32,000 nt of DNA from Alteromonas lipotrueae (GCF_019249215.1 NZ_JAESDI010000001.1:282728-314727), one strand, 5' to 3'. Shown: positions 2,217 through 31,070, numbered from the stretch's first letter. Program-made: numbers and translations. The notes: generated by a model from the sequence alone, not told the origin.

Positions 2217-3020
2217 TTATGCGCGTTTATAAAGCCTGGTCATCATAGATCCCCAATAAGCGTGTCGCTTTTGTGAATCTCGTTTGTGCACGGAAGATAA
2301 CCAGTTTTCATTGTCCTGATCTGAACGGTAGACAGAGTCTCGATAGAGATCCACATGATCAGCAAGTACAAAATTTAGCTCAGCAAACAATTCATCAACC
2401 AATGCCGCTGAAAAATGTTGAAAATGGCTAGGATAATGATGTTGAACCCATTCATCCCGATACAAATTGGCGACCGTAGAGCTCGAATCTGGTGTTGCAG
2501 TGATAAAGAAATATCCCTCTTCTGACACTAAATCCGTAAGCTGTTTTAATAACGCCCTAAAGTCCACCAAGTGCTCTAACACTCCTCGCAGAACGACAAG
2601 GTTCATCGTCCCCTTTCCTACTTTATCAACACTCAAGTGATATCCTTTCTGTGTCAATGTCTCTACCGCGCCAATGGATAAGTCATCTCCAAAGGCCCGT
2701 ACGTTTTTAATTCCACCGTGTTCAACCAAGGCATCTAGGAAGTAGCCACCAGAGGCACCATAGTCAAATACAGGCCCTTCTAATGGATCGGTAATTTGGC
2801 TTTTAATCCAATCCACTTCTTGTATGTAAGATACTGCGCGCGCCTTATTTTTTACTTCCGAAGCCTGATGATTTTTTTCATGGTAATGCGCGTAATGGTT
2901 ACTAATTTCAGTTGGCGTTGGTACAGGTACCGTGCAAATATACAGGCAGTCATTACACCGATAATAATTACCCGTCCAAATTTTCAAATCACTACCCTGA
3001 CAGAAGCGGCATATTTTCAT
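2217..3020 (-). CDS. Class I SAM-dependent methyltransferase with N-terminal Cys4 zinc-ribbon
   Basis: N-terminal CRFC...CNDC zinc-ribbon. Glycine-rich SAM motif I (VFDYGASGGYFLDAL) followed by VVLRGVLEHL. Convergent with the GT52-like gene (19-bp gap) and 2 bp downstream of the preceding minus-strand gene. Confidence 0.65.
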   Translation of the reverse strand: MKICRFCQGSDLKIWTGNYYRCNDCLYICTVPVPTPTEISNHYAHYHEKNHQASEVKNKARAVSYIQEVDWIKSQITDPLEGPVFDYGASGGYFLDALVEHGGIKNVRAFGDDLSIGAVETLTQKGYHLSVDKVGKGTMNLVVLRGVLEHLVDFRALLKQLTDLVSEEGYFFITATPDSSSTVANLYRDEWVQHHYPSHFQHFSAALVDELFAELNFVLADHVDLYRDSVYRSDQDNENWLSSVHKRDSQKRHAYWGSMMTRLYKRA

Positions 3021-6949: not shown

Positions 6950-7891
6950 TTATTTTGACACAAGCGACATATCTATTTTTTTGTCCGACTCCACTCTTAA
7001 TCCTGCGTCTTTAAACTCACTAAATTCAACAACCTGTGTATTTGCATAATCCGTAAACGTGATATTTTTCTTCGGTACATTCCAGTCTGAACCATACAAA
7101 AAGGCTAAATATTCACTGGATTGCACTGGCGTTTGAACTTGGCAAGTGTTCCAGTTGACCAATGCCGTACCGTTAAAATGCTTTTCTGGCGCAAACCACA
7201 TCCCCAAGCTAGGAAGGTGGATAGATTTACCATCTTTGACTTCTCGCGCACTAAACGTTGTTTTGAACTGAGCTAGATTATTAAGGGGGTCGTCAAACTC
7301 CAATACAATACCAATACCTCTATTCTTTTTATCTAGGGTTTTTGAGACTTTCCAGGTTAAGTTACTTACGTTATTTTCGACAAATGCCTCGATAACATTC
7401 AGTACACTCTGGAAATAATGTGTGGGCATTGAAAAGTCGATATCGTCATCCCACTCGATAATATCTTTGTCTCGAATGATACCCAGCAATGTTCCAAAAT
7501 CGAGCACAAGAGGAACACTCTCATTTATGGCTATTGAAGATAGCTCGCTAATAATGTTGCGACCCAATTGTCGGCTTGCGGCATTATAAAATGGTGGAGT
7601 TTGTTTTTTTAAGTGACTTTTAGGTGGCACAACGATTTTTTGATGCGGGACATTGAGTTCATTGAGTAACTGCGCTTCAACTTCTACTGCCCACTGGGTG
7701 GTTATTACTATTTCATCGAATACTAAGTGTCCAATAGCGGCAGGGCTAATAACTGGCACGCCTTCGATAAGTAACCCTTCTTTCTGTTTATCGTTATCAA
7801 CAATACCAATAAACTCTCGGGACGTTTCATTATTAGAGATATACGTTTTTGAGCTTTCGCCTGCCCCAAATAATAGCGTTTTTGTTTTCAT
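6950..7891 (-). CDS. LicD-family phospho(no)-group transferase with N-terminal small Rossmann-like domain
   Basis: LicD signature LLGIIRDKDIIEWDDDIDF (DDDID at nt 7436-7450). The N-terminal ~90 aa (LLFGAGESSK...GIVDNDKQKEG..IEGVPVISP) resembles the small nucleotide-binding domain found on NeuD/PglD-type and sugar-transferase proteins. Confidence 0.7.
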   Translation of the reverse strand: MKTKTLLFGAGESSKTYISNNETSREFIGIVDNDKQKEGLLIEGVPVISPAAIGHLVFDEIVITTQWAVEVEAQLLNELNVPHQKIVVPPKSHLKKQTPPFYNAASRQLGRNIISELSSIAINESVPLVLDFGTLLGIIRDKDIIEWDDDIDFSMPTHYFQSVLNVIEAFVENNVSNLTWKVSKTLDKKNRGIGIVLEFDDPLNNLAQFKTTFSAREVKDGKSIHLPSLGMWFAPEKHFNGTALVNWNTCQVQTPVQSSEYLAFLYGSDWNVPKKNITFTDYANTQVVEFSEFKDAGLRVESDKKIDMSLVSK

Positions 7892-7918
7892 GGCCGAAAA
7901 TGCCTATTTTTCTCGTAG

Positions 7919-9019
7919 TTAAGACAAACTCTCTTTAATGATGGCTTTAACTAAATCTGGCGTGACTGCCGTTGTAAAATTACCCGCCCGGGAAGGATCG
8001 AGTTCGCGGTCAACAGCTTTAAGCATTTGCGGTAATTCTGCAAACTTCTTCATTTCGTCGTTGAGGCGTAATGCATCCAAGAGATTAATTATCCTATCGA
8101 CCATGTCTTGGGATAACTTTAATCTGTTTGCCCCTACAACCTTTAACATTGCCGCCAAAGTAAAACTACAGGCTAAACCGTGGGGTACCTTAAATTCAAT
8201 GGTCAAAGGATATGAGATTGCGTGGGCAAGTGCAGTTTTAGTTTCTGAAATCGCAAGACCTGATAAAAATGCCGCGAATTGCAGAGCCGCTCGGCCTTCA
8301 ATGTTCTTAGGTTTTTTAAGCACGGGCCGCAAATGCTCACAAATTAGTGCTATGGCTTGCACTGCATAGCGCTCAGAAGTGTTCGACCGCCTTACATTCC
8401 ATAATGATTCGATAGCATGGGACAAAGCATCTAATGCTGTCACCATGGTTTCATAAGGCGGTAATCCTACCGTTAAATTCGGATCTAAAACAACCTTATC
8501 GCTTTCAGCATGGTCAATAGAATATTTCTTTTTATCACCCGTATCCCATACTGTAGCAAATGGGGTGATTTCAGCCCCTGTTCCCGAGGTGGTGGGGATG
8601 GCGATTAACGCCACAGAATTTGACACTGCTTTTCGTGCAGCCATAAGTTGGTGTAGGCCGCCGCTTTGTGTTTGCAACATAACCCGAAGTACTTTAGAGG
8701 TGTCTAACACGCTACCACCGCCTAGCGCGATAATATGAGTGACTTTACTTGTTTTAAATCGCGCATAAAGTCCATCGATATAGGTTAACTCTGGATTAGG
8801 GGTTACATCATCAATCACGCGAAAACGTTCACATTTCAGTTTGGCTTTGAATGCATCCACAACACCACGCTTAACAAACCCCTGACTTGTAACAAGTAGA
8901 ACCTCATGGTTGGCTTCTATCAGTTTACTCACACTAGATAAGTAATCATCTGATTGAATTAACCGCTCGTTTAAGGCTTTAGTTAGCATGGGCGGCATGA
9001 AACTCATATCATTCGCCAT
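7919..9019 (-). CDS. Group III iron-containing alcohol dehydrogenase; predicted phosphonoacetaldehyde reductase
   Basis: Fe-ADH motifs GGGSVLDTSK, DALSHAIESLW and ALAHAISYPLT...PHG. Overlaps the 3' end of the phosphonopyruvate decarboxylase gene by 11 bp (start could instead be an internal Met a few codons in). The phosphonate-specific role is inferred from context. Confidence 0.65.
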   Translation of the reverse strand: MANDMSFMPPMLTKALNERLIQSDDYLSSVSKLIEANHEVLLVTSQGFVKRGVVDAFKAKLKCERFRVIDDVTPNPELTYIDGLYARFKTSKVTHIIALGGGSVLDTSKVLRVMLQTQSGGLHQLMAARKAVSNSVALIAIPTTSGTGAEITPFATVWDTGDKKKYSIDHAESDKVVLDPNLTVGLPPYETMVTALDALSHAIESLWNVRRSNTSERYAVQAIALICEHLRPVLKKPKNIEGRAALQFAAFLSGLAISETKTALAHAISYPLTIEFKVPHGLACSFTLAAMLKVVGANRLKLSQDMVDRIINLLDALRLNDEMKKFAELPQMLKAVDRELDPSRAGNFTTAVTPDLVKAIIKESLS

Positions 9020-10151
9020 GACTGTGCTGCATAAATGCTAATTTATTCTCGATGGGGGTAGACGTAGGACGTCCCAAATCACTTCTTGCACCTTGTTTAA
9101 TTTTAACTTCAAACAAAATTGGACCTTTACATTGAGGCATTGCAGCAATAATCTTTGACCACGCTTCAGTAAGTGAGTCACTATCATCACAACAATAATA
9201 CGCGTCGTATTTGCATCCTAATGCAATGCTTTCTATGTCAATACCTCCAGCTACAGTAGGCTGCCCACCCACCGAGTCATGGCATTGATTATTGAGTACC
9301 ACATGGATCAAGTTGTCAAGGTTACTTGCTCCAGCAATAGCTAGTGCCCCCATGTGCATTAGCATCGAACCGTCACCATCAAGCGCTATCACTTGACGGT
9401 TTGGTTTTACACGGGCTACTCCCATCGCAATGGATAAGGTATGTCCCATTCCACCAACGGTAAGGAAATCTGTATTATCTTGGTTATTTGTTTGTCTAAT
9501 TTCAAACAATTCCCTTGATGTTTTCCCAGTGGTTGAGATGATTAACTCTGCACCAGACATGTTTCCCAGCAAAAGAGACAGGGCTTCCTCTCTGCTCATC
9601 TCACATCGGTTTTCAACTGACTTACTGCTAGCCGAGTCCGTAGCTGAAAAGGTGTCTTTTCTAACCAAAATGGCTACAGGACATGTATTGGTTTTCATGG
9701 TTTCTAGTAATGGTGGCAAAGCATCTTCTAGAATCGAACCCGAATCTATCGTGATATAAGGGATTCCTAGCACATCCAACTGCTGCTGCGTTATTTGACC
9801 TTGTTTTACATGCTGTGGTTCGTCTTTAACATTAGGCTCACCTCGCCATCCAATCACCATCAACATTGGAATCCCGTAAACCTCTGGATCAGCAAGTGAC
9901 GTGAGTGGATTTATCGTGTTTCCCAATCCAGAGTTCTGCATATATACGACAGCGGGTTGCCCTGCCCCTAAGTAATGACCTGTCGCCATTCCAATAGCAT
10001 TGCCCTCATTAGCGGTAATCACATGCGCGTTAGATTCAAACGTAGAATCGATATAAGCACACAAATTTTTCAGTAGCGAGTCTGGTACACCGTAATAGTT
10101 GCTCAAGCCATGTTGGGCGAGTAAGTGACAAAACAATTCAGGGGATACCAT
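9009..10151 (-). CDS. ppd: Phosphonopyruvate decarboxylase (thiamine-diphosphate dependent)
   Basis: N-terminus GVPDSLLK, mid-region IPMLMVIGWRGEP, and the TPP-binding GDGSMLMHMG...VVLNN motif. ~380 aa, typical Ppd size. Sits immediately downstream (4-bp gap) of PEP mutase. Confidence 0.85.
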   Translation of the reverse strand: MVSPELFCHLLAQHGLSNYYGVPDSLLKNLCAYIDSTFESNAHVITANEGNAIGMATGHYLGAGQPAVVYMQNSGLGNTINPLTSLADPEVYGIPMLMVIGWRGEPNVKDEPQHVKQGQITQQQLDVLGIPYITIDSGSILEDALPPLLETMKTNTCPVAILVRKDTFSATDSASSKSVENRCEMSREEALSLLLGNMSGAELIISTTGKTSRELFEIRQTNNQDNTDFLTVGGMGHTLSIAMGVARVKPNRQVIALDGDGSMLMHMGALAIAGASNLDNLIHVVLNNQCHDSVGGQPTVAGGIDIESIALGCKYDAYYCCDDSDSLTEAWSKIIAAMPQCKGPILFEVKIKQGARSDLGRPTSTPIENKLAFMQHSHGE

Positions 10152-10155
10152 AGTG

Positions 10156-11457
10156 CTACTTACCGCCCGGTATCAATTCTAGAATTTGTTTAATAGGCAT
10201 CATTTGGGCATCAACTTCTGAACTTCGCCCATGGCGTAAAATAGACTCTGCAGTGTTGCACATTGCTGGGTATGCGCTTCGCAGTAATTGATTAGCATAA
10301 ATAACTACATTCACACCCCGCGCTTGAAGCTCATGTTCAAAGACGGTGTTATAACTAGAAGGCACCACTACCAACGTCTTTTTGTTTTCGAATTTTGCAT
10401 AACGGTCACAAAATTCAAATATTTCATCTGGTGATTTTTCTCGGCTATGGATCATAATGCCATCAGCCCCAGCCTCTAAAAATGCTTTAGCTCGCTCGAG
10501 AGCATCATCTATACCTTTGCCTAATATTAAGCTTTCAATACGGGCAATAATCATAAAGTCATTGGTAGCTTGAGCACTTTTACCCGCTGATATTTTTTGG
10601 CTAAAAGCTTCAATTGTATCTTGAGTTTGCGCTACATCAGTGCCGAATAAAGAGTTCTTTTTAAGTCCGGTTTTATCTTCAATAATAACCGCAGACACAC
10701 CCAGCCTTTCTAAGGTCTTCACCGTGAAAGTGAAATGCTCTGTTTTTCCGCCCGTATCGGCGTCATAAATAATCGGTTTTGTAGTAACTTCTAGCACTTC
10801 ATTTAAGGTGCTCATACGAGAAGATACATCTACGGCTTCAATATCGGGTTTTCCCTTTGCTGTTGAATCTGTAAGGCTACTTCCCCACATCCCATCAAAC
10901 TCTTTAACCCCAGTATCCGTTTCTATCTTTGTATTCTCGATTATCAACCCTGACAAGGCGTTGTGAATATCCAAAAAGCGAACCAGAGGCTTAGCAGCCA
11001 TTAATCGTTTTAAGGATTTCAATCGAATGGCAGGCGTGGTCCCCACTTCTTTCATCGCTTGGTGTAATTGTGAAGAAGAAATACCTTGGGTATAAGGCAC
11101 TTCTATGAGCTTCCCTCCCCATTGGGCCAAGCAATCGATAACCCGCTGTCGAGTTTTCTGCTGAACACCCGTTTTCCAATCATCACCATGCACGACATAA
11201 TCAGGTTTCAATGTCTCTAGATTAGGAACATAGTCTAATGTAGTTTGAGGTATTACAGCATCCACACCTTTTATATTTTCAATTACAACTTTCCGTTGCT
11301 CAAACTCCATAAAAGGCACTCGCTTATAACTCGCGATTGCAGCGTCGGTTAAAAGCCCGACGGTGACGTCGCCTAATTTGGCGGCGCTCTTGAGAACATT
11401 AAGATGGCCAGGATGAACCAAATCGGCACTCATTCCTACATAAACACTCTTTGTCAT
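10156..11457 (-). CDS. pepM: Bifunctional cytidylyltransferase / phosphoenolpyruvate phosphomutase fusion
   Basis: N-terminal ~130 aa carry the HxGH cytidylyltransferase motif ([13 protein letters not shown]). The C-terminal domain has PEP mutase landmarks [28 protein letters not shown] and ANQLLRSA. The PepM-diagnostic EDKX5NS motif ([10 protein letters not shown]) was verified at nt 10651-10680. Confidence 0.9.
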
Positions 11458-11505: not shown

Positions 11506-11531
11506 TATCGGCACAAAAAATAAAACTTTAA
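11506..11531 (-). promoter_or_regulatory. Sigma-28 (FliA)-type promoter candidate upstream of the pepM fusion gene
   Basis: Minus strand reads TAAAGTTT-N10-GCCGATAT. The enterobacterial consensus is TAAAGTTT-N11-GCCGATAA: the -35 half is identical, the -10 matches 7 of 8, and the spacer is one nt short. Lies in the 117-bp maf/pepM gap, about 50 nt upstream of the ATG. Confidence 0.45.
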
Positions 11532-11574: not shown

Positions 11575-14500
11575 CTAAGCATTAATATCAGATATCATGT
11601 TTTTCACACGGGTTTCATTTGCGTCTTCTAAAAGTAATGAATCTATCTGTATATTTCCTCTGCACACCTTACCTCTATTTCCAATATTATCGCATGCTAA
11701 GCTAGAAGCTAGAACGCCTTTACGAGGGATAGCAATATACCTTGCATATTCTATATATTCTTCAACCCATGAGAGAGATTCAAGTAATGGTGCTAAGTAG
11801 CGTTGCTTTTGAATTGCACTGCTGTTCGTGAACTCATATTTAGGCAAGAACATGAACACATCTTCTTGATTACAGAGAAAACCTGGCACAAAATGTTGCT
11901 TAGCAGTGTGCACAAAAGGTCTATCTCCAGCTTCAAATGAAGGAATATCTAGCGCATTCGGCGAATACCAAATATAAATGCTAACCTTACTCTTAAGTTC
12001 GAATAATCGTGTAACAACACTTTCTTCAACAAGACTGAAGGTTCCAACGAGGCTGTTTATTTCGCTACCAATATTGCTCAATAAACTATCCAGAGCAGTT
12101 ACCTTGCGCCTAAAATGTATATGATAAGCATCACATTCACTACTTTTTGGGGTCTTAGCTAACGATAGTGCCGAGTCAATTGTTTCCACTAATTTCTTAT
12201 CTGTCTCTTCAATATCTAGGCTGAAAGTTTTATCTCCAGATGTTATCCACGCTTTTATAAACACAGATTCTCTTAAAAATACGCAAGAGCTGGTAGTATC
12301 GAATGCCGAAGCATCGCCGATGTAGCTAATTGATACTTTCTCTAATGTATCTAGCCATTGCAAACGCGCTTCATCAAGCGCCGTCAAACTATCCGTTGTG
12401 GAGGATAATTTGCTGAAGACTGCATTGGCATAGTTGATAGTTCCATACAGCAAATAAAATAAGAGTGATTTCTTCATTTGATACGACTCGAATATCATCT
12501 CCTTTTGAACCTTAATAAACTCATCTGCTTCGTCATTTGATGAGAAGGGTACTTTTACTTTTTCCATGAAGATAGAAAGCTCGTCTTTCAGTGCATCAAC
12601 ATCGAATCTCGCATTAAATAGAGAGGGATATTCATCAGGTTTTTCAATTGGTTGAAACGCATTATTTTTTATAACATCTAGTGCAGCATCTCTTTGACTA
12701 GATGATGCAGAAATTAATACCATATCTAAAGGTAAAGGCGTTGCACCGGCTATTTTTGCACCATCGCTGCAGTTGAAACATGTAAGCCCATTTTGCGCTA
12801 AGGACTGCTCGATGATCGTTTTGGAAAGTTTAAACTCGTACTTCGTGAACACAGTGGCTCTGAAATTACCAGGCACAACAATTGATGTATTATTGCTGGC
12901 CTCATAGTCATAAACCTCTTTACCGTTGACATAGTAGGAAGATTCTTTCGAGTGGTGTTTAGTCTTGTCATAAAAGCCTAAATCTACGCCAAATAAGTAA
13001 ATCTGATCCATCCCAATTTTTGAAAACAGATTGATAGCTAAATTTGATACCGTCGGGAATGCGAAACGTAACTCTTCATAGTTAGCCCGTCCTAAAACTT
13101 CTAAGGCTGAAACGGTGGACGACTCGCCATCTTTAAATGCTATATAAACATCGTTGAAAAGGTCACAAGTGTCAGGGTGAATACCATTAACTGAGATTAA
13201 GTTTATTTGTTTGAGATAATTAAAATCATCGACTCGACTACACCAATCAAAGGTAGAGCGATTTTGCTCAATTTCAGCATGAAAATCTGGCGTAATATCG
13301 TGTTTATACAATGCTGAAAGCGCAGTTCCGCAAGAGACAACAATTGCATTCTCTCGGTACTCCAAAATGGTTTCTATCGCCGAATCTAAAGACGGGCCAT
13401 TCCCTACGATAAAAACAGGAACTTCTTTGTTTTCAAAAGATAAATATTGCGCAGGCTTATTACGCAGAAGTGGAAAGCCTCTTTTTAATGCCTCAGTAGT
13501 GTGAGAGATACCATACCTTGCATGGTCAAAATATTCCCCCATAGAAATAACGACCTGAAGTTGTTCCCTCAATTGAGCAATTGCCGACACTAATGCTGAA
13601 TTGTAATAGCTCTGATAGAAATAGGTATTCGCAAGTATATAGGGGCCAATAGAATAAAACTGATTTAGCAAATCTTTAAATAAATTAGTGCCATCGTCAC
13701 CGATGTTAATGTACAAACGCCCTTCTTTTTCATCAATACCAGATAAAATTTCATCCCACTTTATGGCAAATAAAGATGCGTAAAAAAAATCTTTATTAGG
13801 TTCGCATACAAATAACTTTTCTACGTCGTGATTATTGAACAAACGCTCTATTTGGTAACCCACTCCAACGCCAAAAAGAATCATGGACTTCAGCGTATCT
13901 GGCAATTGTCCTTCATCTTGCTCTACTTGTTTTAAGAGCGATTCTGTTTTATTGACAAATTGATAGTGGATATATTTCTTAAGCTTTTTCCCTTTATAGC
14001 CAAGTATTAGTCCGTCTTTATTCGGCTGATCACTAAAACTGTCAAAATTTAGCGCGCATTCCTGTTTGGGTGATTCTCCATACCAAGAAACAAGGGAGTC
14101 CTTCTTCACTAAATTGATTTCACCATTGCTGTCTTCTACAGGCAACCATGTTTGCGGTTCGTAATGACTAAAACTGTTAAAAATATCGGGAAAATATTTT
14201 TTGAAGGCAGCGAGGTTACTTTTCAGTCTACCTTGTGCTTCTGCACTAGGATCCTGGTAATTTTCTAATTGTATTGATTGCGTCCAAGGTGGCACGTATT
14301 CTGTTGGACTTCTTAGTTTATATGAAGTAATACCAGTACTCTTAAGCCGAGCCCAACCGCCCTGAATACATGTTTTTTCTATGGTATCGAAAATAGGAGA
14401 ATTGTAATGTTTGTATAAATAAAATCCCCCTATGTCGAAATGCTGTCTAAGCTCTTCAATATCGCTAACAATATTTCGGCCATCTTTTTCGAGTTGAAAA

Positions 14501-15108
14501 AATAACCGCGTACCTTTGTCGTTAGCTTCTGCCAAAACGTCGTTCCATTTTGAGCAAAATACCGAGCATTTGAAATATTGTGCTTCAGGCTCGTAAATAA
14601 CTAAGTTGGTTATAGAGTGTTTTTTTATTAACTCAACAATATGGAAGCCTAATCCAACCCCTAACACTACAAGAGTATCTATGGTCTCGGGTAAGGCACT
14701 TCGTTGTATATAATGTTGATATGAAAAAGTATTCGCTAAAGATCCCTCTAAACTTTCATTAGTTTCGACCTCTGCCGGATTAGTTTCATCGCATTGCTTA
14801 AGGTCGACAAAAATCGAGTGGGTACTATTTACCAAATATTGTTTACTGATTTCCGCTTCAGGATCTAGCCCATAAAGCGTTCGCCCGATGCCATAGTCGA
14901 CTAAGTTAAACTGCCCGTTTTTGTTGCAGATAATAGAAATATTGTCATTGTTTATTTTTTGTATATTAGCTATTAGTGACGGTATAAATTGTCTAAAAGC
15001 AAACAGGTTTTTCTTATACTGTCGATCGATTAGCTCGGCGGTATACTTTTCGATTTGCGCTTGTTTCTCTTCATCTTTAAAAATATGCAATCGAACATTT
15101 TTAAGCAT
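11575..15108 (-). CDS. maf: Motility accessory factor (Maf, DUF115/MAF_flag10) flagellin nonulosonate transferase, oversized 1177 aa
   Basis: Core Maf motif VFIVGNGPSLD (GNGPS verified at nt 13390-13404), followed by VVSCGTA ... HAEIEQN ... IYLFGVDLGF. Located between pseH and the phosphonate genes. The N-terminal domain is present twice (see repeat feature). Confidence 0.8.
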   Translation of the reverse strand: MLKNVRLHIFKDEEKQAQIEKYTAELIDRQYKKNLFAFRQFIPSLIANIQKINNDNISIICNKNGQFNLVDYGIGRTLYGLDPEAEISKQYLVNSTHSIFVDLKQCDETNPAEVETNESLEGSLANTFSYQHYIQRSALPETIDTLVVLGVGLGFHIVELIKKHSITNLVIYEPEAQYFKCSVFCSKWNDVLAEANDKGTRLFFQLEKDGRNIVSDIEELRQHFDIGGFYLYKHYNSPIFDTIEKTCIQGGWARLKSTGITSYKLRSPTEYVPPWTQSIQLENYQDPSAEAQGRLKSNLAAFKKYFPDIFNSFSHYEPQTWLPVEDSNGEINLVKKDSLVSWYGESPKQECALNFDSFSDQPNKDGLILGYKGKKLKKYIHYQFVNKTESLLKQVEQDEGQLPDTLKSMILFGVGVGYQIERLFNNHDVEKLFVCEPNKDFFYASLFAIKWDEILSGIDEKEGRLYINIGDDGTNLFKDLLNQFYSIGPYILANTYFYQSYYNSALVSAIAQLREQLQVVISMGEYFDHARYGISHTTEALKRGFPLLRNKPAQYLSFENKEVPVFIVGNGPSLDSAIETILEYRENAIVVSCGTALSALYKHDITPDFHAEIEQNRSTFDWCSRVDDFNYLKQINLISVNGIHPDTCDLFNDVYIAFKDGESSTVSALEVLGRANYEELRFAFPTVSNLAINLFSKIGMDQIYLFGVDLGFYDKTKHHSKESSYYVNGKEVYDYEASNNTSIVVPGNFRATVFTKYEFKLSKTIIEQSLAQNGLTCFNCSDGAKIAGATPLPLDMVLISASSSQRDAALDVIKNNAFQPIEKPDEYPSLFNARFDVDALKDELSIFMEKVKVPFSSNDEADEFIKVQKEMIFESYQMKKSLLFYLLYGTINYANAVFSKLSSTTDSLTALDEARLQWLDTLEKVSISYIGDASAFDTTSSCVFLRESVFIKAWITSGDKTFSLDIEETDKKLVETIDSALSLAKTPKSSECDAYHIHFRRKVTALDSLLSNIGSEINSLVGTFSLVEESVVTRLFELKSKVSIYIWYSPNALDIPSFEAGDRPFVHTAKQHFVPGFLCNQEDVFMFLPKYEFTNSSAIQKQRYLAPLLESLSWVEEYIEYARYIAIPRKGVLASSLACDNIGNRGKVCRGNIQIDSLLLEDANETRVKNMISDINA
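13579..15018 (-). repeat. Internal tandem duplication of the Maf N-terminal domain (copy 1 about aa 31-245, copy 2 about aa 295-510)
   Basis: Collinear matches at a constant offset of about 263 aa: KKNLFAFRQFIPSL / LKSNLAAFKKYFPDI; LVVLGVGLGFHIVEL / MILFGVGVGYQIERL; VIYEPEAQYFKCSVFCSKWNDVL / FVCEPNKDFFYASLFAIKWDEIL; GTRLFFQLEKDG / GRLYINIGDDG. Confidence 0.75.
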
Positions 15109-17056: not shown

Positions 17057-17766
17057 CAGGCTCCCCCTAAATATAAAATTTGTCCTGTAATGAAACTGCT
17101 TTCTGGTTTGATATAAAAATCGATGACATTAGACACATCCGCCATTTCGCCGAATCTCTTTATACTCTGCTTTTCGAGCAGTTTATTTAACTTATCATCA
17201 GGAACATTTTTAATTAGATCCGTTTGAATTGGCGTTGGGCCAATGGCGTTCACAGTAACGCCAAATTCTGAAAATTCTTTCGCCAATGTTTGTGTCAGGC
17301 TTTCTACAGCAGATTTTGACGCGGCATAAATGGCTTCGCCTTCTAAAGCAAAAGGCACGGCAACTGTAGAGAAGTTAACAATTCGCCCATATTGATTTTT
17401 ACGCATTAGCTTGACCGCTTCGCGGCAAAATAAGAAACTCGCAAATACATTAGTTGAGAAAATTTTCTCTACCGTAGATAGGGGCGTCAACATCGCGTGA
17501 TTCATAGCCGCTATGCCAGCATTGTTGATAAGTACATCGAGCCGCTTATGACGCTTACGAATTGACGAGAAAAGAGATTTGACGTCAATTTCACTTGCCA
17601 CATCTAAACTAAAATGTTGGTAATTTTGGTGTTCAATTGATAATTCCGAACGGCTACACCCAATAACAATATGACCTGCATTTAAATAGTAATGAGTTAG
17701 GTATAACCCTATTCCCCTGCTTGATCCGGTTATCAAAATGACTTGTTGAGTATGTGACGTATCCAT
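17056..17766 (-). CDS. Short-chain dehydrogenase/reductase (3-oxoacyl-ACP reductase-like)
   Basis: TGSSRGIG cofactor motif, NNAG, and the catalytic YAASKSAV (Y-x-x-x-K). 1-nt overlap with the ACP gene upstream. Confidence 0.8.
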   Translation of the reverse strand: MDTSHTQQVILITGSSRGIGLYLTHYYLNAGHIVIGCSRSELSIEHQNYQHFSLDVASEIDVKSLFSSIRKRHKRLDVLINNAGIAAMNHAMLTPLSTVEKIFSTNVFASFLFCREAVKLMRKNQYGRIVNFSTVAVPFALEGEAIYAASKSAVESLTQTLAKEFSEFGVTVNAIGPTPIQTDLIKNVPDDKLNKLLEKQSIKRFGEMADVSNVIDFYIKPESSFITGQILYLGGA

Positions 17767-18062
17767 TACTGTTCATTCAACGCATTAGTTAAATACGTCG
17801 CCAGCGTATCAATCGTTTTAAATGGGCTATTTTTTTGAGACAACGCTTTTTCATTCGCAATGACATATTCAACCTCTAACTCATCTTCAAGCAACTCCTC
17901 AAGTGTCAGAAGAAGGTTAACCAAATCAACGGAGTCTAATAGACTAGCAGAGCCATACAGCGCTGTGTTTTCGTCTTTCACTACTTGTTCACCTTCCCGA
18001 GTAGCATTAAGCTCATCGATTGCAGAATAAATTAACGCGATAATTTGCTGATTAGTGATCAT
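17766..18062 (-). CDS. Acyl carrier protein
   Basis: 98 aa, acidic and helical, with the phosphopantetheine attachment-type motif LLDSVDLVNLL. Confidence 0.7.
   Translation of the reverse strand: MITNQQIIALIYSAIDELNATREGEQVVKDENTALYGSASLLDSVDLVNLLLTLEELLEDELEVEYVIANEKALSQKNSPFKTIDTLATYLTNALNEQ

Positions 18063-20890: not shown

Positions 20891-20894
<4 letters not shown>
20178..20894 (-). CDS. pseF: Pseudaminic acid cytidylyltransferase
   Basis: N-terminus AIIPARGGSKRIPKKNIRLFSGKPLIAYSI and AEVPFIRPEALSDD are typical of the CMP-nonulosonate synthetase family. 4-bp overlap with pseC. Confidence 0.8.
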
Positions 20895-23055
<2,161 letters not shown>

Positions 23056-23136: not shown

Positions 23137-23448
23137 TTATTTGTATTTTTTTACGGCAGACCTGCTACGAACAAATCGAGTTATGTCATCTTTGGCTTCT
23201 TCAAGCAAGCTCTGCGCCATCTCTTTTAGTCTATTATTAACATCAAGCTCGAGATTTGCAAATTCTTGTTTATTCTCAGGTGCTAAGGTTTCCAAGTGTT
23301 CTTTAATTACGGAGTCCCGCCGTACTAACAGCGCCTTGAGTTCGGAAAAATCAGATTCTGAAGAACTTTCGAATTGCGCCGCTATTTGCTCGTTTATTTC
23401 ACGCAGCGCAATTGGTGTTTGAGAATGGTCTAAATCGTTTTTATTCAC
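23137..23448 (-). CDS. Small helical protein, FliT-like flagellar chaperone candidate
   Basis: 103 aa, charged and predicted helical. Its GTG start overlaps the fliS stop (GTGA), so it is probably translationally coupled. The position after fliS matches fliT-type genes. No diagnostic motif recognised. Confidence 0.35.
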   Translation of the reverse strand: MNKNDLDHSQTPIALREINEQIAAQFESSSESDFSELKALLVRRDSVIKEHLETLAPENKQEFANLELDVNNRLKEMAQSLLEEAKDDITRFVRSRSAVKKYK

Positions 23449-25927: not shown

Positions 25928-26767
25928 TTACCCGAGCAAAGATAGCGCAGTTTGAGGGCGCTGATTTGCTTGACTTAGTACAGAAATAGATGCCTGCTGA
26001 ATAATCTGATTACGTGTTAACTCTGCAGTTTCAGATGCAAAATCTGTATCACGAATCTGAGAACGTGCAGATGACAGGTTCTCACTGATATTGCTTAAGT
26101 TACGAATAGTTGACTGGAAACGGTTTTGAAGCGCACCCAGGTCAGCTCGAACCGCCCCAATACCTGATATCGCTGCGTCTACATCAGACAGAAGTGCTGA
26201 GGCACCTTTGGCTGTGGCGACACTCTCGCTGGTAATACCTAACCCAGTGGCACTAAAGCCACTGATAGAACCAAGGTTAGTTGAAGATAAGTTCACAGAA
26301 ATGGTTTGGCCTGCGTTTGCACCTACTAAGAACTTAGCAGAGAAGTTGCCGTCCAAAATTTTCACACTTCCGAATTGCGTATCTGTCGCAATGCGTGAAA
26401 TTTCAGTTCTAAGCGCTGATACTTCTTTTTGAAGTGCCAAGCGGTCAGCTGAAGAGTTAATTCCATTCTGCGATTGTACCGCTAGTTGGCGAATACGCTG
26501 CAAGCTAGATGTTACTTCGCTAAGCGCCCCTTCAGCAGTTTGTGACAATGAGATAGCATCGTTTGCGTTACGAACAGCTTGGTTTAACCCTTCAACTTGA
26601 GACGTTAGACGGTCAGAAATTTGAAGACCAGCAGCATCATCAGCCGCACTGTTGATACGAAACCCAGATGACAATCTTTCAAACGACGTGTTCAACTTAT
26701 CACTTACGTCAAAAAGCTGACGTTGAGCGTTCAATGAAGACACATTAGTATTTACAAATAAAGACAT
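25928..26767 (-). CDS. fliC: Flagellin (short, 279 aa, D0/D1-only type)
   Basis: MSLFVNTNVSSLNAQRQL...INSAADDAAGLQISDRLTSQVEGLNQAVRNANDAISL...LGALQNRFQSTIRNL...SVLSQANQRPQTALSLLG. AGGAGGTAA Shine-Dalgarno. Confidence 0.95.
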   Translation of the reverse strand: MSLFVNTNVSSLNAQRQLFDVSDKLNTSFERLSSGFRINSAADDAAGLQISDRLTSQVEGLNQAVRNANDAISLSQTAEGALSEVTSSLQRIRQLAVQSQNGINSSADRLALQKEVSALRTEISRIATDTQFGSVKILDGNFSAKFLVGANAGQTISVNLSSTNLGSISGFSATGLGITSESVATAKGASALLSDVDAAISGIGAVRADLGALQNRFQSTIRNLSNISENLSSARSQIRDTDFASETAELTRNQIIQQASISVLSQANQRPQTALSLLG

Positions 26768-30083: not shown

Positions 30084-31070
30084 GTGAATATAAATTTGAA
30101 GATTAACGCGGTTGAGCAAATTTCATCGGAAGGTGAGCACTGCGCATTCACTGATTTAATCGAAAATCCCTTCGACAATAGTCGTAAATCACTACTTTGC
30201 TGCTATCGACGAGGCGTTAACCATATAAGCCCAGATGGCGTTGTAATTGTCTGCAAAGTGAATGTTGATTCGGGGGCAAAAACTTATCAGCGACTGACAC
30301 TACCCTCTTGGGATTTACGCGATCCAAAATTTTGTTTTGATGGACGAAAGTTAATCATCACAGCCTACGCTAAGCACAAAGACGCAAATACGGGTGCGAT
30401 AACCACTAAAATGGTGAGTTACTTTTCTACCACCGGGGATTCTTGGTCAAGCCCCCACTTTTTTGGGCACTCGGGTTGGTGGCTGTGGCGGGTAACGTGG
30501 AACAAGGATAAAGCTTACGGTTTTGCCTATAATCGTAAAAATCAAAGAATTGATTTGTATGCAGGCGACCCACGCAAACAACTTTACCTTCAAAAGAAAG
30601 GCGCTATTTCTTTTGAGAAACACACATTTGGCTACCCGAATGAAAGCCATATATTGTTTGATGATGCTGATAAAGCGACGGCGATTGTGCGCCGCGACGC
30701 AGATAGCTTCAGCGCCAAACTAGGTTTCTCCTCCCCGCCCTATACCAATTGGATATGGCACGACTTGAAACACTACGTAGGTGGACCGGTAATGTTATCT
30801 CTTACAGACAATATGTATATGGTTGCAGGCAGAAACTGGGATGGGAGAAATCTGACAACGGCAATTTGGTTACTTTCATCGACTGATTATTCGCTGAAAC
30901 TTCTGATTACCTTACCTAGTAAAGGGGACAATAGTTACCCGGGCTTGGTATGGCAAGGCGACACGTTATATGTCTCTTATTACTCAGATCATATCGATAA
31001 CAAAACCCGAGTATACCTTGCCACATTGTCAGGGATGAATGGCCTATTAAATGAAGTTGAACAGGGATAA
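30084..31070 (+). CDS. BNR/sialidase-like beta-propeller-type protein, no signal peptide (function unknown)
   Basis: Degenerate Asp-box-like segment YFSTTGDSWSSP. LRDP resembles the sialidase RIP-type motif. The C-terminal blade-like segment DNSYPGLVWQGDTLYVSYYSD resembles the last blade of BNR-repeat-like proteins. The N-terminus is not hydrophobic. GTG start with AAAGGG upstream. The 3' end overlaps flgL convergently by 24 bp. Confidence 0.35.
   Translation: MNINLKINAVEQISSEGEHCAFTDLIENPFDNSRKSLLCCYRRGVNHISPDGVVIVCKVNVDSGAKTYQRLTLPSWDLRDPKFCFDGRKLIITAYAKHKDANTGAITTKMVSYFSTTGDSWSSPHFFGHSGWWLWRVTWNKDKAYGFAYNRKNQRIDLYAGDPRKQLYLQKKGAISFEKHTFGYPNESHILFDDADKATAIVRRDADSFSAKLGFSSPPYTNWIWHDLKHYVGGPVMLSLTDNMYMVAGRNWDGRNLTTAIWLLSSTDYSLKLLITLPSKGDNSYPGLVWQGDTLYVSYYSDHIDNKTRVYLATLSGMNGLLNEVEQG

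Follow-up and report, generated by a model that had tools for sequence, protein, structure and literature searches.

A probable operon for making and transferring 2-hydroxyethylphosphonate in a flagellar region of Alteromonas lipotrueae

We analysed a 32,000-nucleotide stretch of DNA from the marine bacterium Alteromonas lipotrueae (GCF_019249215.1, NZ_JAESDI010000001.1:282728-314727; hereafter the window), and in particular the gene for an iron-type alcohol dehydrogenase (Fe-ADH, here ADH) at 7919-9019. The four minus-strand genes at 6950-11457, of which it is one, quite probably form a single operon for making and transferring 2-hydroxyethylphosphonate (2-HEP or HEP). In the proposed pathway, a phosphoenolpyruvate (PEP) mutase domain would convert PEP to phosphonopyruvate, a phosphonopyruvate decarboxylase (Ppd) would turn the latter into phosphonoacetaldehyde, and the ADH, as a PhpC-type metal-dependent enzyme, would reduce phosphonoacetaldehyde to 2-HEP with NAD(P)H. 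A Fom1-type cytidylyltransferase (CyTase) domain fused to the mutase would then combine 2-HEP with cytidine triphosphate (CTP) to give CMP-2-HEP, a conjugate of cytidine monophosphate (CMP), from which a LicD-like enzyme would move hydroxyethylphosphonyl onto a hydroxyl of a sugar, forming a phosphonate monoester. To judge by gene position, the acceptor is most probably a nonulosonate glycan placed on flagellin by the glycosyltransferase Maf.

The catalytic steps, the specificity of the CyTase and the donor of the LicD-like enzyme are all predicted from homology. Sequence-level support comes from family and domain identities, substrate residues, gene order and coupling, the lack of a transaminase for 2-aminoethylphosphonate (2-AEP or AEP), and co-occurrence; a 2-HEP rather than a 2-AEP headgroup is supported by every such test that we ran. 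A sequence-only reading of the window had proposed that the pathway stops at 2-HEP, which is then activated to a CMP conjugate. The PhpC residues of the ADH, the ~69% identity of the CyTase to Fom1, the missing AEP transaminase (AEPT) and the pairing of Fom1-like CyTases with ADHs all favour that proposal. The four genes and the two domains of the fusion are as follows.

10156-11457, minus strand: fusion gene CyTase-PEP mutase, 433 amino acids (aa), with PF01467 at residues 10-131 and PF13714 at residues 149-407
11041..11457, minus strand: N-terminal Fom1-type cytidylyltransferase domain, fusion residues 1-139 (PF01467, 50 bits), predicted CTP:2-HEP cytidylyltransferase
10156..11025, minus strand: PEP mutase domain, residues ~145-433 of the 433-aa fusion (PF13714, 186 bits; TIGR02320), predicted to form the carbon-phosphorus (C-P) bond
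9009..10151, minus strand: phosphonopyruvate decarboxylase, Ppd/AepY/Fom2-like (TIGR03297, 440 bits, cut-off 312.5), predicted to form phosphonoacetaldehyde
7919..9019, minus strand: Fe-ADH, 366 aa (PF00465, PF25137), predicted PhpC/FomC-type phosphonoacetaldehyde reductase forming 2-HEP
6950..7891, minus strand: LicD-like phosphotransferase (PF04991), predicted to transfer hydroxyethylphosphonyl from CMP-HEP to a glycan hydroxyl

Coupled genes and a predicted PhpC-type reductase

In the order fusion gene, ppd, ADH gene, licD-like gene, the intergenic spacings are 4 nt, -11 nt and 27 nt, ppd starting 4 nt past the stop of the fusion gene, and 117 bp separate the block from the next gene upstream, 225 bp from the next one downstream. 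The 11-bp overlap between ppd and the ADH gene noted in the sequence-only reading (ATGGCGAATGA) holds only if the first ATG (9019) is the ADH start; it disappears with the alternative in-frame ATGs at 9007, 8998 and 8989, which leave gaps of 1-19 nt. The two genes are tightly coupled whichever ATG is used. The PEP mutase part of the fusion reaches 401 bits against TIGR02320, over the cut-off of 319.55, and the Ppm-specific EDKxxxxxNS motif is visible in the alignment. The LicD-like protein matches PF04991 with 42.5 bits (cut-off 22.6) over residues 126-188 and scores 55.6 bits, under the cut-off, against the cholinephosphotransferase model NF045866; a sequence search of the PDB found no relative of it.

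The gene product at 7919-9019 had been read as an Fe-ADH from its GGGSVLDTSK motif. Matches to PF00465 (119 bits) and to the ADH_Fe_C family PF25137 (86 bits) agree with that reading, and the motif lies at residues 100-109, with GGGS at 100-103. Residues D197, H201, H266 and H280, which we take to be the metal ligands of Fe-ADHs, are conserved in the alignment. Among NCBIfam models the best match by far is TIGR03405 (Phn_Fe-ADH/PsrA), with 296.9 bits (E 1.6e-88), and many homologues that are 42-48% identical already carry the NCBI name phosphonoacetaldehyde reductase.

PhpC of Paraburkholderia fungorum has been characterised by Piazza et al. (2026), who predicted that Lys157, Thr256, Tyr264 and Arg349 bind HEP (PMC13576164); the kcat/KM values of PhpC enzymes are ~10^3-10^4 M-1 s-1 (PMC13576164). 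These four residues align to K165, T262, Y270 and R344 of the window ADH, and an orphan ADH (locus L019) has exactly K157, T256, Y264 and R349 in the same alignment columns. The quartet is invariant in 25/25 other ADHs from loci with fused Fom1-like CyTase-PepM genes, although these ADHs are 31-48% identical overall. The R344 column holds Gln in both standalone-CyTase loci (L129 and L130). More distant out-group Fe-ADHs lose T262, Y270 and/or R344, two of them (L051 and L057) showing L/H/T-or-N at the HEP-binding positions. For this comparison we dropped most of the 80 related ADH loci, which encode AdhE proteins of ~870 aa.

In a FastTree phylogeny the window ADH falls inside a clade of pepM-linked ADHs, and the orphan (non-pepM) ADHs, presumably catabolic, form a sub-clade nested among them. 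Genomic linkage to pepM and ppd has been used as a synteny criterion for PhpC (PMC9381506), and the window ADH is linked to both. It thus resembles the PhpC-type reductases (EC 1.1.1.309; PhpC, FomC, DhpG and AglG) in the Fe-ADH fold, the metal ligands and the four HEP residues, and the biosynthetic members of this type in their linkage to pepM and ppd. We tried a second Fe-ADH of the genome (G000:C22:130430-131239; L138:1414-2562) as a candidate catabolic HEP dehydrogenase and rejected it: the protein is ErcA/lactaldehyde-reductase-like, is 29% identical to the window ADH and has Gly in place of T262. It is 382 aa long, adjoins a glyoxalase-III-like gene and is not of the PhpC type.

Could the ADH instead belong to the sugar metabolism of the island, for instance in a KdnB-like oxidation of an ulosonic acid, and have no activity on phosphonoacetaldehyde? 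The island is rich in nonulosonate genes, and KdnB (PDB 5K8C), an octulosonate 8-oxidase of the Fe-ADH family, is a detectable relative (2.2e-18). However, TIGR03405, a phosphonate-associated model, is matched far better, the residues predicted to bind HEP are kept, and the gene stays by ppd and the CyTase whatever sugar genes surround it: in several phyla and one archaeon, it is always directly next to ppd or to a CyTase gene that is itself beside ppd. We regard a role in sugar metabolism as extremely improbable and retain phosphonoacetaldehyde as the predicted substrate.

The transaminase search and the fused cytidylyltransferase

The only aminotransferase of the window is, as had been noted, the DegT/PseC-type gene at 20891-22036. 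A transaminase encoded elsewhere had been named as an outcome that would speak against 2-HEP. We searched the whole genome, which is 100% complete, and found nothing over the cut-off of either AEPT model, TIGR02326 or TIGR03301. The best match is an unlinked, generic class-V aminotransferase of 378 aa (G000:C18:3958-5028), with 191 bits against TIGR03301 (cut-off 360.8) and 199 bits to BhcA. An AEPT over cut-off was likewise found in 0/10 other module-bearing genomes, and at E<=1e-40 five of these ten had no AEPT-type match at all. With two class-V aminotransferase queries, tblastn detected no such gene in any of 30 Fom1-like/ADH loci. The unannotated flanking genes of the relatives' modules include no aminotransferase; four have no Pfam match, and the others comprise Capsule_synth-like, TagF-like, pirin, LuxC, LuxE, AMP-ligase and B12-radical-SAM (S-adenosylmethionine) genes.

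In the N-terminal domain of the fusion, residues 5-138 match PDB 5X3D, the CyTase domain of Fom1, with 219 bits (E 7.6e-64) and 93/134 identical positions (~69%). Production of CMP-HEP from HEP and CTP has been shown for this one enzyme, Fom1 (Cho 2017, as cited by PMC6697681 and PMC9088020). PntC enzymes, which are specific for AEP, form a separate family, PF12804 (PMC6697681), and a Pfam scan of the fusion protein gave no match to it. The activating role that the sequence-only reading had given to the PepM-fused cytidylyltransferase is thus supported; to it can be added that the domain is of the Fom1-type PF01467 class, a direct biochemical precedent that had gone unnamed. By homology, the fused CyTase would act on 2-HEP rather than 2-AEP.

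We examined the co-occurrence of these genes in 400 Pseudomonadota genomes, evenly drawn, taking as Fom1-like any CyTase that is >=50% identical. Ppd and ADH genes were adjacent, and no transaminase was present, in all seven Fom1-like CyTase loci (4 fused, 3 stand-alone). In contrast, all six PepM-PF12804 fusion loci without a nearby Fom1-like CyTase carried Ppd with a true AEPT (364-454 bits) and lacked an ADH. Where true AEPT genes were found, they lay directly beside ppd, and in the AEPT-linked fusions PF12804 lies C-terminal to PepM. Locus L129 holds a PepM-PF12804 fusion together with a stand-alone Fom1-like CyTase and a reductase, L130 has the same gene layout with reductase, and in one genome (G338) the two cluster types are found on separate contigs. 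Since related genomes do not count as independent, we read these numbers as a pattern rather than as a statistical test.

A 2-AEP headgroup made by a transaminase encoded elsewhere, such as the 378-aa class-V protein with its 191 bits to TIGR03301, and an ADH left with a side or salvage activity, would fit with AEP being the commonest phosphonate decoration and with its occurrence on the flagellin glycan of Clostridioides difficile (PMC8861647). We nevertheless consider it very unlikely. The class-V protein is far under all AEPT cut-offs, with equal scores to BhcA and pyridoxamine-pyruvate transaminase; half of the ten other module-bearing genomes have no such match at E<=1e-40; the CyTase is Fom1-like, not of the AEP-specific PntC type; and a true AEPT gene, wherever one occurs, has ppd as its direct neighbour.

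Fusion proteins from the same family share 77-87% identity with that of the window, and those from other phyla, a Woesearchaeota metagenome-assembled genome (MAG) among them, share 64-83%. At the same loci (window 10156-11457 versus L011-L023, L040, L101-L109 and L125-L128) identities are well below that of the fusion, at 44-61% for Ppd and 31-48% for the ADH. This high conservation suggests either strong constraint or a recent spread of the fusion gene.

The pathway may go beyond 2-HEP in some strains. L129:7216-13200 and L130:7241-13221 (genomes G346 and G338) show a fosfomycin-like layout of PepM-PF12804 fusion, Ppd, stand-alone Fom1-like CyTase (51% identical), ADH and B12-radical-SAM genes; the matches of the radical-SAM gene include the PhpK P-methyltransferase family (95 bits), and by analogy with Fom3 its product may methylate CMP-HEP. 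One Alteromonadaceae relative (G034) has a B12-binding radical-SAM gene, L101:13323-15029, two genes upstream of its module. For the window, it is possible but improbable that 2-HEP and CMP-HEP are only intermediates, with C-methylation, oxidation to hydroxymethyl- or methylphosphonate, or O-methylation taking place before or after transfer. The radical-SAM genes next to the ADH in L129/L130 and upstream in L101 are in line with such tailoring, as are the methylation of HEP-CMP by the B12-radical-SAM methyltransferase Fom3 in the fosfomycin pathway (PMC9088020) and a SAM methyltransferase gene within the window (2217-3020). This methyltransferase gene, however, belongs to the separate downstream nonulosonate module, and the conserved core in relatives consists of fusion, Ppd and ADH only, usually with LicD. 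In agreement with the sequence-only reading, the window gave no Pfam or NCBIfam match to cupin, oxygenase, radical-SAM, HepD, MpnS or 2-oxoglutarate (2OG)-oxygenase families; three open reading frames (ORFs; 30084-31070, 23137-23448 and 17766-18062) have no family match, so that the scan says nothing on them, and the search for MpnS, HepD and HppE was confined to the window. We therefore prefer 2-HEP as the transferred group.

Flagellar setting and the predicted glycan acceptor

By family profile matches the window is a flagellar region, with flagellin genes, flaG, fliD and fliS. It also contains a pseB-C-F-I-G set, a 1177-aa Maf, acyl-modification genes and a second, NeuB-type nonulosonate module. 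Between the flagellin genes and a flgL-like gene, 30084-31070(+) encodes the 328-aa ORF without Pfam or NCBIfam match mentioned above. The four-gene block is flanked by maf and the second nonulosonate module, and two features on its upstream side bear on its setting.

11575..15108, minus strand: Maf flagellin glycosyltransferase (PF20157, 401 bits; PF01973), directly upstream of the module
11506..11531, minus strand: FliA (sigma-28)-like promoter motif, TAAAGTTT-N10-GCCGATAT, within the 117 bp that separate maf from the fusion gene

The pattern TAAAG-N12-16-CCGATA has two matches in the window, where 0.15 are expected, and the other one is upstream of the flagellin gene 25928-26767.

Among 200 other Alteromonadaceae genomes, the fusion was found in nine, from eight genera (nine including the window's own), and in 0/5 genomes of the window's own genus. 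All nine keep the fusion-Ppd-ADH trio. A LicD homologue (26-50% identity) directly adjoins the ADH gene in seven and lies 4 kb off in an eighth (L105). Pse genes stand beside the module in 9/9, and in 8/9 the only maf matches of the genome are on the module's contig, 14-36 kb away from it. The trio also occurs in Stutzerimonas, Xanthomonas, Planctomycetota, Bacillota, Verrucomicrobiota and the Woesearchaeota MAG.

Taking these data together, we propose tentatively, at somewhat less than even chance, that the LicD-like enzyme esterifies 2-HEP onto a pseudaminic-acid-type glycan that Maf attaches to flagellin. The headgroup could also be 2-HEP but the LicD acceptor non-flagellar (lipopolysaccharide (LPS), capsule or glycolipid), the module being a passenger in a variable flagellar island. 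Related cassettes do lie outside flagellar loci; in two genomes (G454 and G107) module and maf are on different contigs, and locus L128 adjoins wecB/wecC-type and CDP-alcohol phosphatidyltransferase-like genes. The window operon, however, has maf and the second nonulosonate module as its direct neighbours and carries the sigma-28-like promoter, and the module is <=36 kb from maf in 8/9 family relatives, with Pse genes alongside in all nine. A non-flagellar acceptor therefore seems unlikely, and flagellin glycan is the acceptor that we favour.

The surroundings of the module vary between relatives. Two loci carry a TagF-like CDP-glycerol glycerophosphotransferase gene (PF04464) ~1.4 kb and 90 nt downstream of the ADH gene (L105:14475-15806 and L109:13093-14544, respectively); no LicD homologue was found in L109, and in L105 LicD-like ORFs adjoin the TagF-like gene. 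Polymerising transfer of HEP is conceivable at these two loci because CMP-HEP has a free hydroxyl. A bolder variant, in which the free hydroxyl of bound HEP is an extension point, is much less likely than simple esterification; the TagF-like transferases of L105/L109 or the window's second nonulosonate module could be the extenders. In four relatives a Capsule_synth gene (KpsC/KpsS-like, PF05159) of ~400 aa directly follows LicD (L101:5061-6257, L103:5482-6693, L104:5426-6631 and L108:5176-6438), at the place that the second nonulosonate module takes in the window. Just upstream of the module, relatives have genes for a LuxC-like acyl-CoA reductase, a LuxE-like acyl-protein synthetase and an AMP-ligase (L103:11163-14768, L107:10867-14484 and L106:7978-9360). 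In the window maf occupies that position, and a different set of AMP-ligase, short-chain dehydrogenase/reductase (SDR) and acyl carrier protein (ACP) genes lies beyond it.

Several points weigh against the proposed pathway and its flagellar target. With its 296.9 bits the ADH stays below the TIGR03405 cut-off of 423.7, a difference from the PhpC type; the model appears narrow, because 0/300 sampled genomes of the class reached that cut-off. The mapping of the PhpC residues goes through the alignment and the matching numbering of a single orphan ADH, that of L019. The generic class-V aminotransferase is present in the genome and formally still a candidate AEPT. PF01467-Ppm fusions beside an AEPT are known (GCF 743; PMC8942020), and the domain type alone is therefore not enough to fix substrate specificity. 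The LicD match spans ~60 residues, and the acceptor is assigned by gene position. In the relatives, a regular-expression search ahead of the fusion genes did not find the sigma-28-like motif, so that we treat the promoter as weak, window-specific support. Finally, the whole argument is drawn from sequence.

Relation to known phosphonate systems

The three activities of the fusion, Ppd and ADH and their architecture are those of Fom1, Fom2 and FomC in the fosfomycin cluster of Streptomyces wedmorensis, with a PF01467 CyTase N-terminal to PEP mutase, a Ppd and an Fe-ADH reductase. In that pathway FomC makes HEP and Fom1 cytidylylates it (PMC6697681, PMC9088020), but CMP-HEP is a transient intermediate there, which Fom3 C-methylates as a step towards the antibiotic. 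In contrast to the fosfomycin cluster, the window lacks genes of the Fom3, Fom4 or FomD type and has a LicD-like transferase instead; CMP-HEP is therefore expected to act as the donor that decorates a glycan. With the fusion protein as query, we found no Fom1-like fusion in 401 Streptomyces genomes at E<=1e-60.

The same logic of a Ppm-cytidylyltransferase fusion, a CMP-phosphonate donor and a LicD-like transferase acting on surface glycans is found in the Pnt clusters of Treponema denticola (Tde1415) and Atopobium rimae (PMC6697681). Those clusters have a PF12804 (LicC-like) PntC that prefers AEP, and an AEP transaminase, whereas the window has a PF01467 CyTase and a reductase and no transaminase. 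The cassette is thus the early fosfomycin steps (Fom1/Fom2/FomC) joined to the LicD logic of the Pnt clusters. Also close to the window are HEP phosphonoglycan clusters, in Stackebrandtia nassauensis/Glycomyces and in marine pepM-aepY-phpC loci with LicD, which likewise combine pepM-ppd-phpC with glycan-transfer genes.

The sequence-only reading had called glycan-bound 2-HEP unusual, but the literature makes it less so. Li and Horsman assigned 8.5% of ppm neighbourhoods to the PhpC branch (PMC8942020), and in ocean metagenomes the abundance of phpC is 64-76% of that of pepM (PMC9381506). Conjugates of HEP are known from the Stackebrandtia exopolysaccharide and from marine high-molecular-weight (HMW) dissolved organic matter (PMC8942020, PMC13576164), and HEP esters of polysaccharides have been shown chemically in actinomycetes and in that marine material (PMC8942020, PMC9381506, PMC13576164). 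Lockwood et al. described marine pepM-aepY-phpC neighbourhoods with LPS cholinephosphotransferase genes (PMC9381506). Novelty had been overstated as well, PhpC-type HEP neighbourhoods, some with LicD, being already inventoried and homologues of the ADH, as seen above, already named. The headgroup prediction is thus sound but ordinary, the cassette being common and its chemistry and enzymology known and expected.

The flagellar setting may be new. C. difficile carries AEP on GlcNAc of its type A flagellin glycan, as a minor species, and its genome lacks pepM (PMC8861647); in the window, by contrast, the genes of the pathway lie within the island and HEP is predicted. In our literature search this AEP was the only phosphonate found on a flagellin glycan, and we found neither a description of a HEP-modified flagellin glycan nor a HEP cluster placed in a Maf/pseudaminic-acid flagellin glycosylation island.

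If the proposal is true, the window would be the first case in which a phosphonylated flagellar glycan is defined genetically, and the flagella of the Alteromonadaceae genera with the module (nine including the window's own) would bear C-P bonds. These bacteria would then be a cultivable heterotrophic source of HEP esters in marine HMW dissolved organic phosphorus; esters of HEP and methylphosphonate make up a large share of the marine dissolved phosphonate pool, and few cultured producers of HEP glycoconjugates are known. A fast-growing, genetically tractable host of the Alteromonas family with a full cassette for HEP synthesis, activation and transfer in its flagellin glycosylation island would be a convenient model, which could reveal the target of CMP-HEP and how LicD-like enzymes use phosphonate donors, and could serve to test the effect of C-P decoration on flagellar function, phage recognition and resistance to enzymatic degradation.

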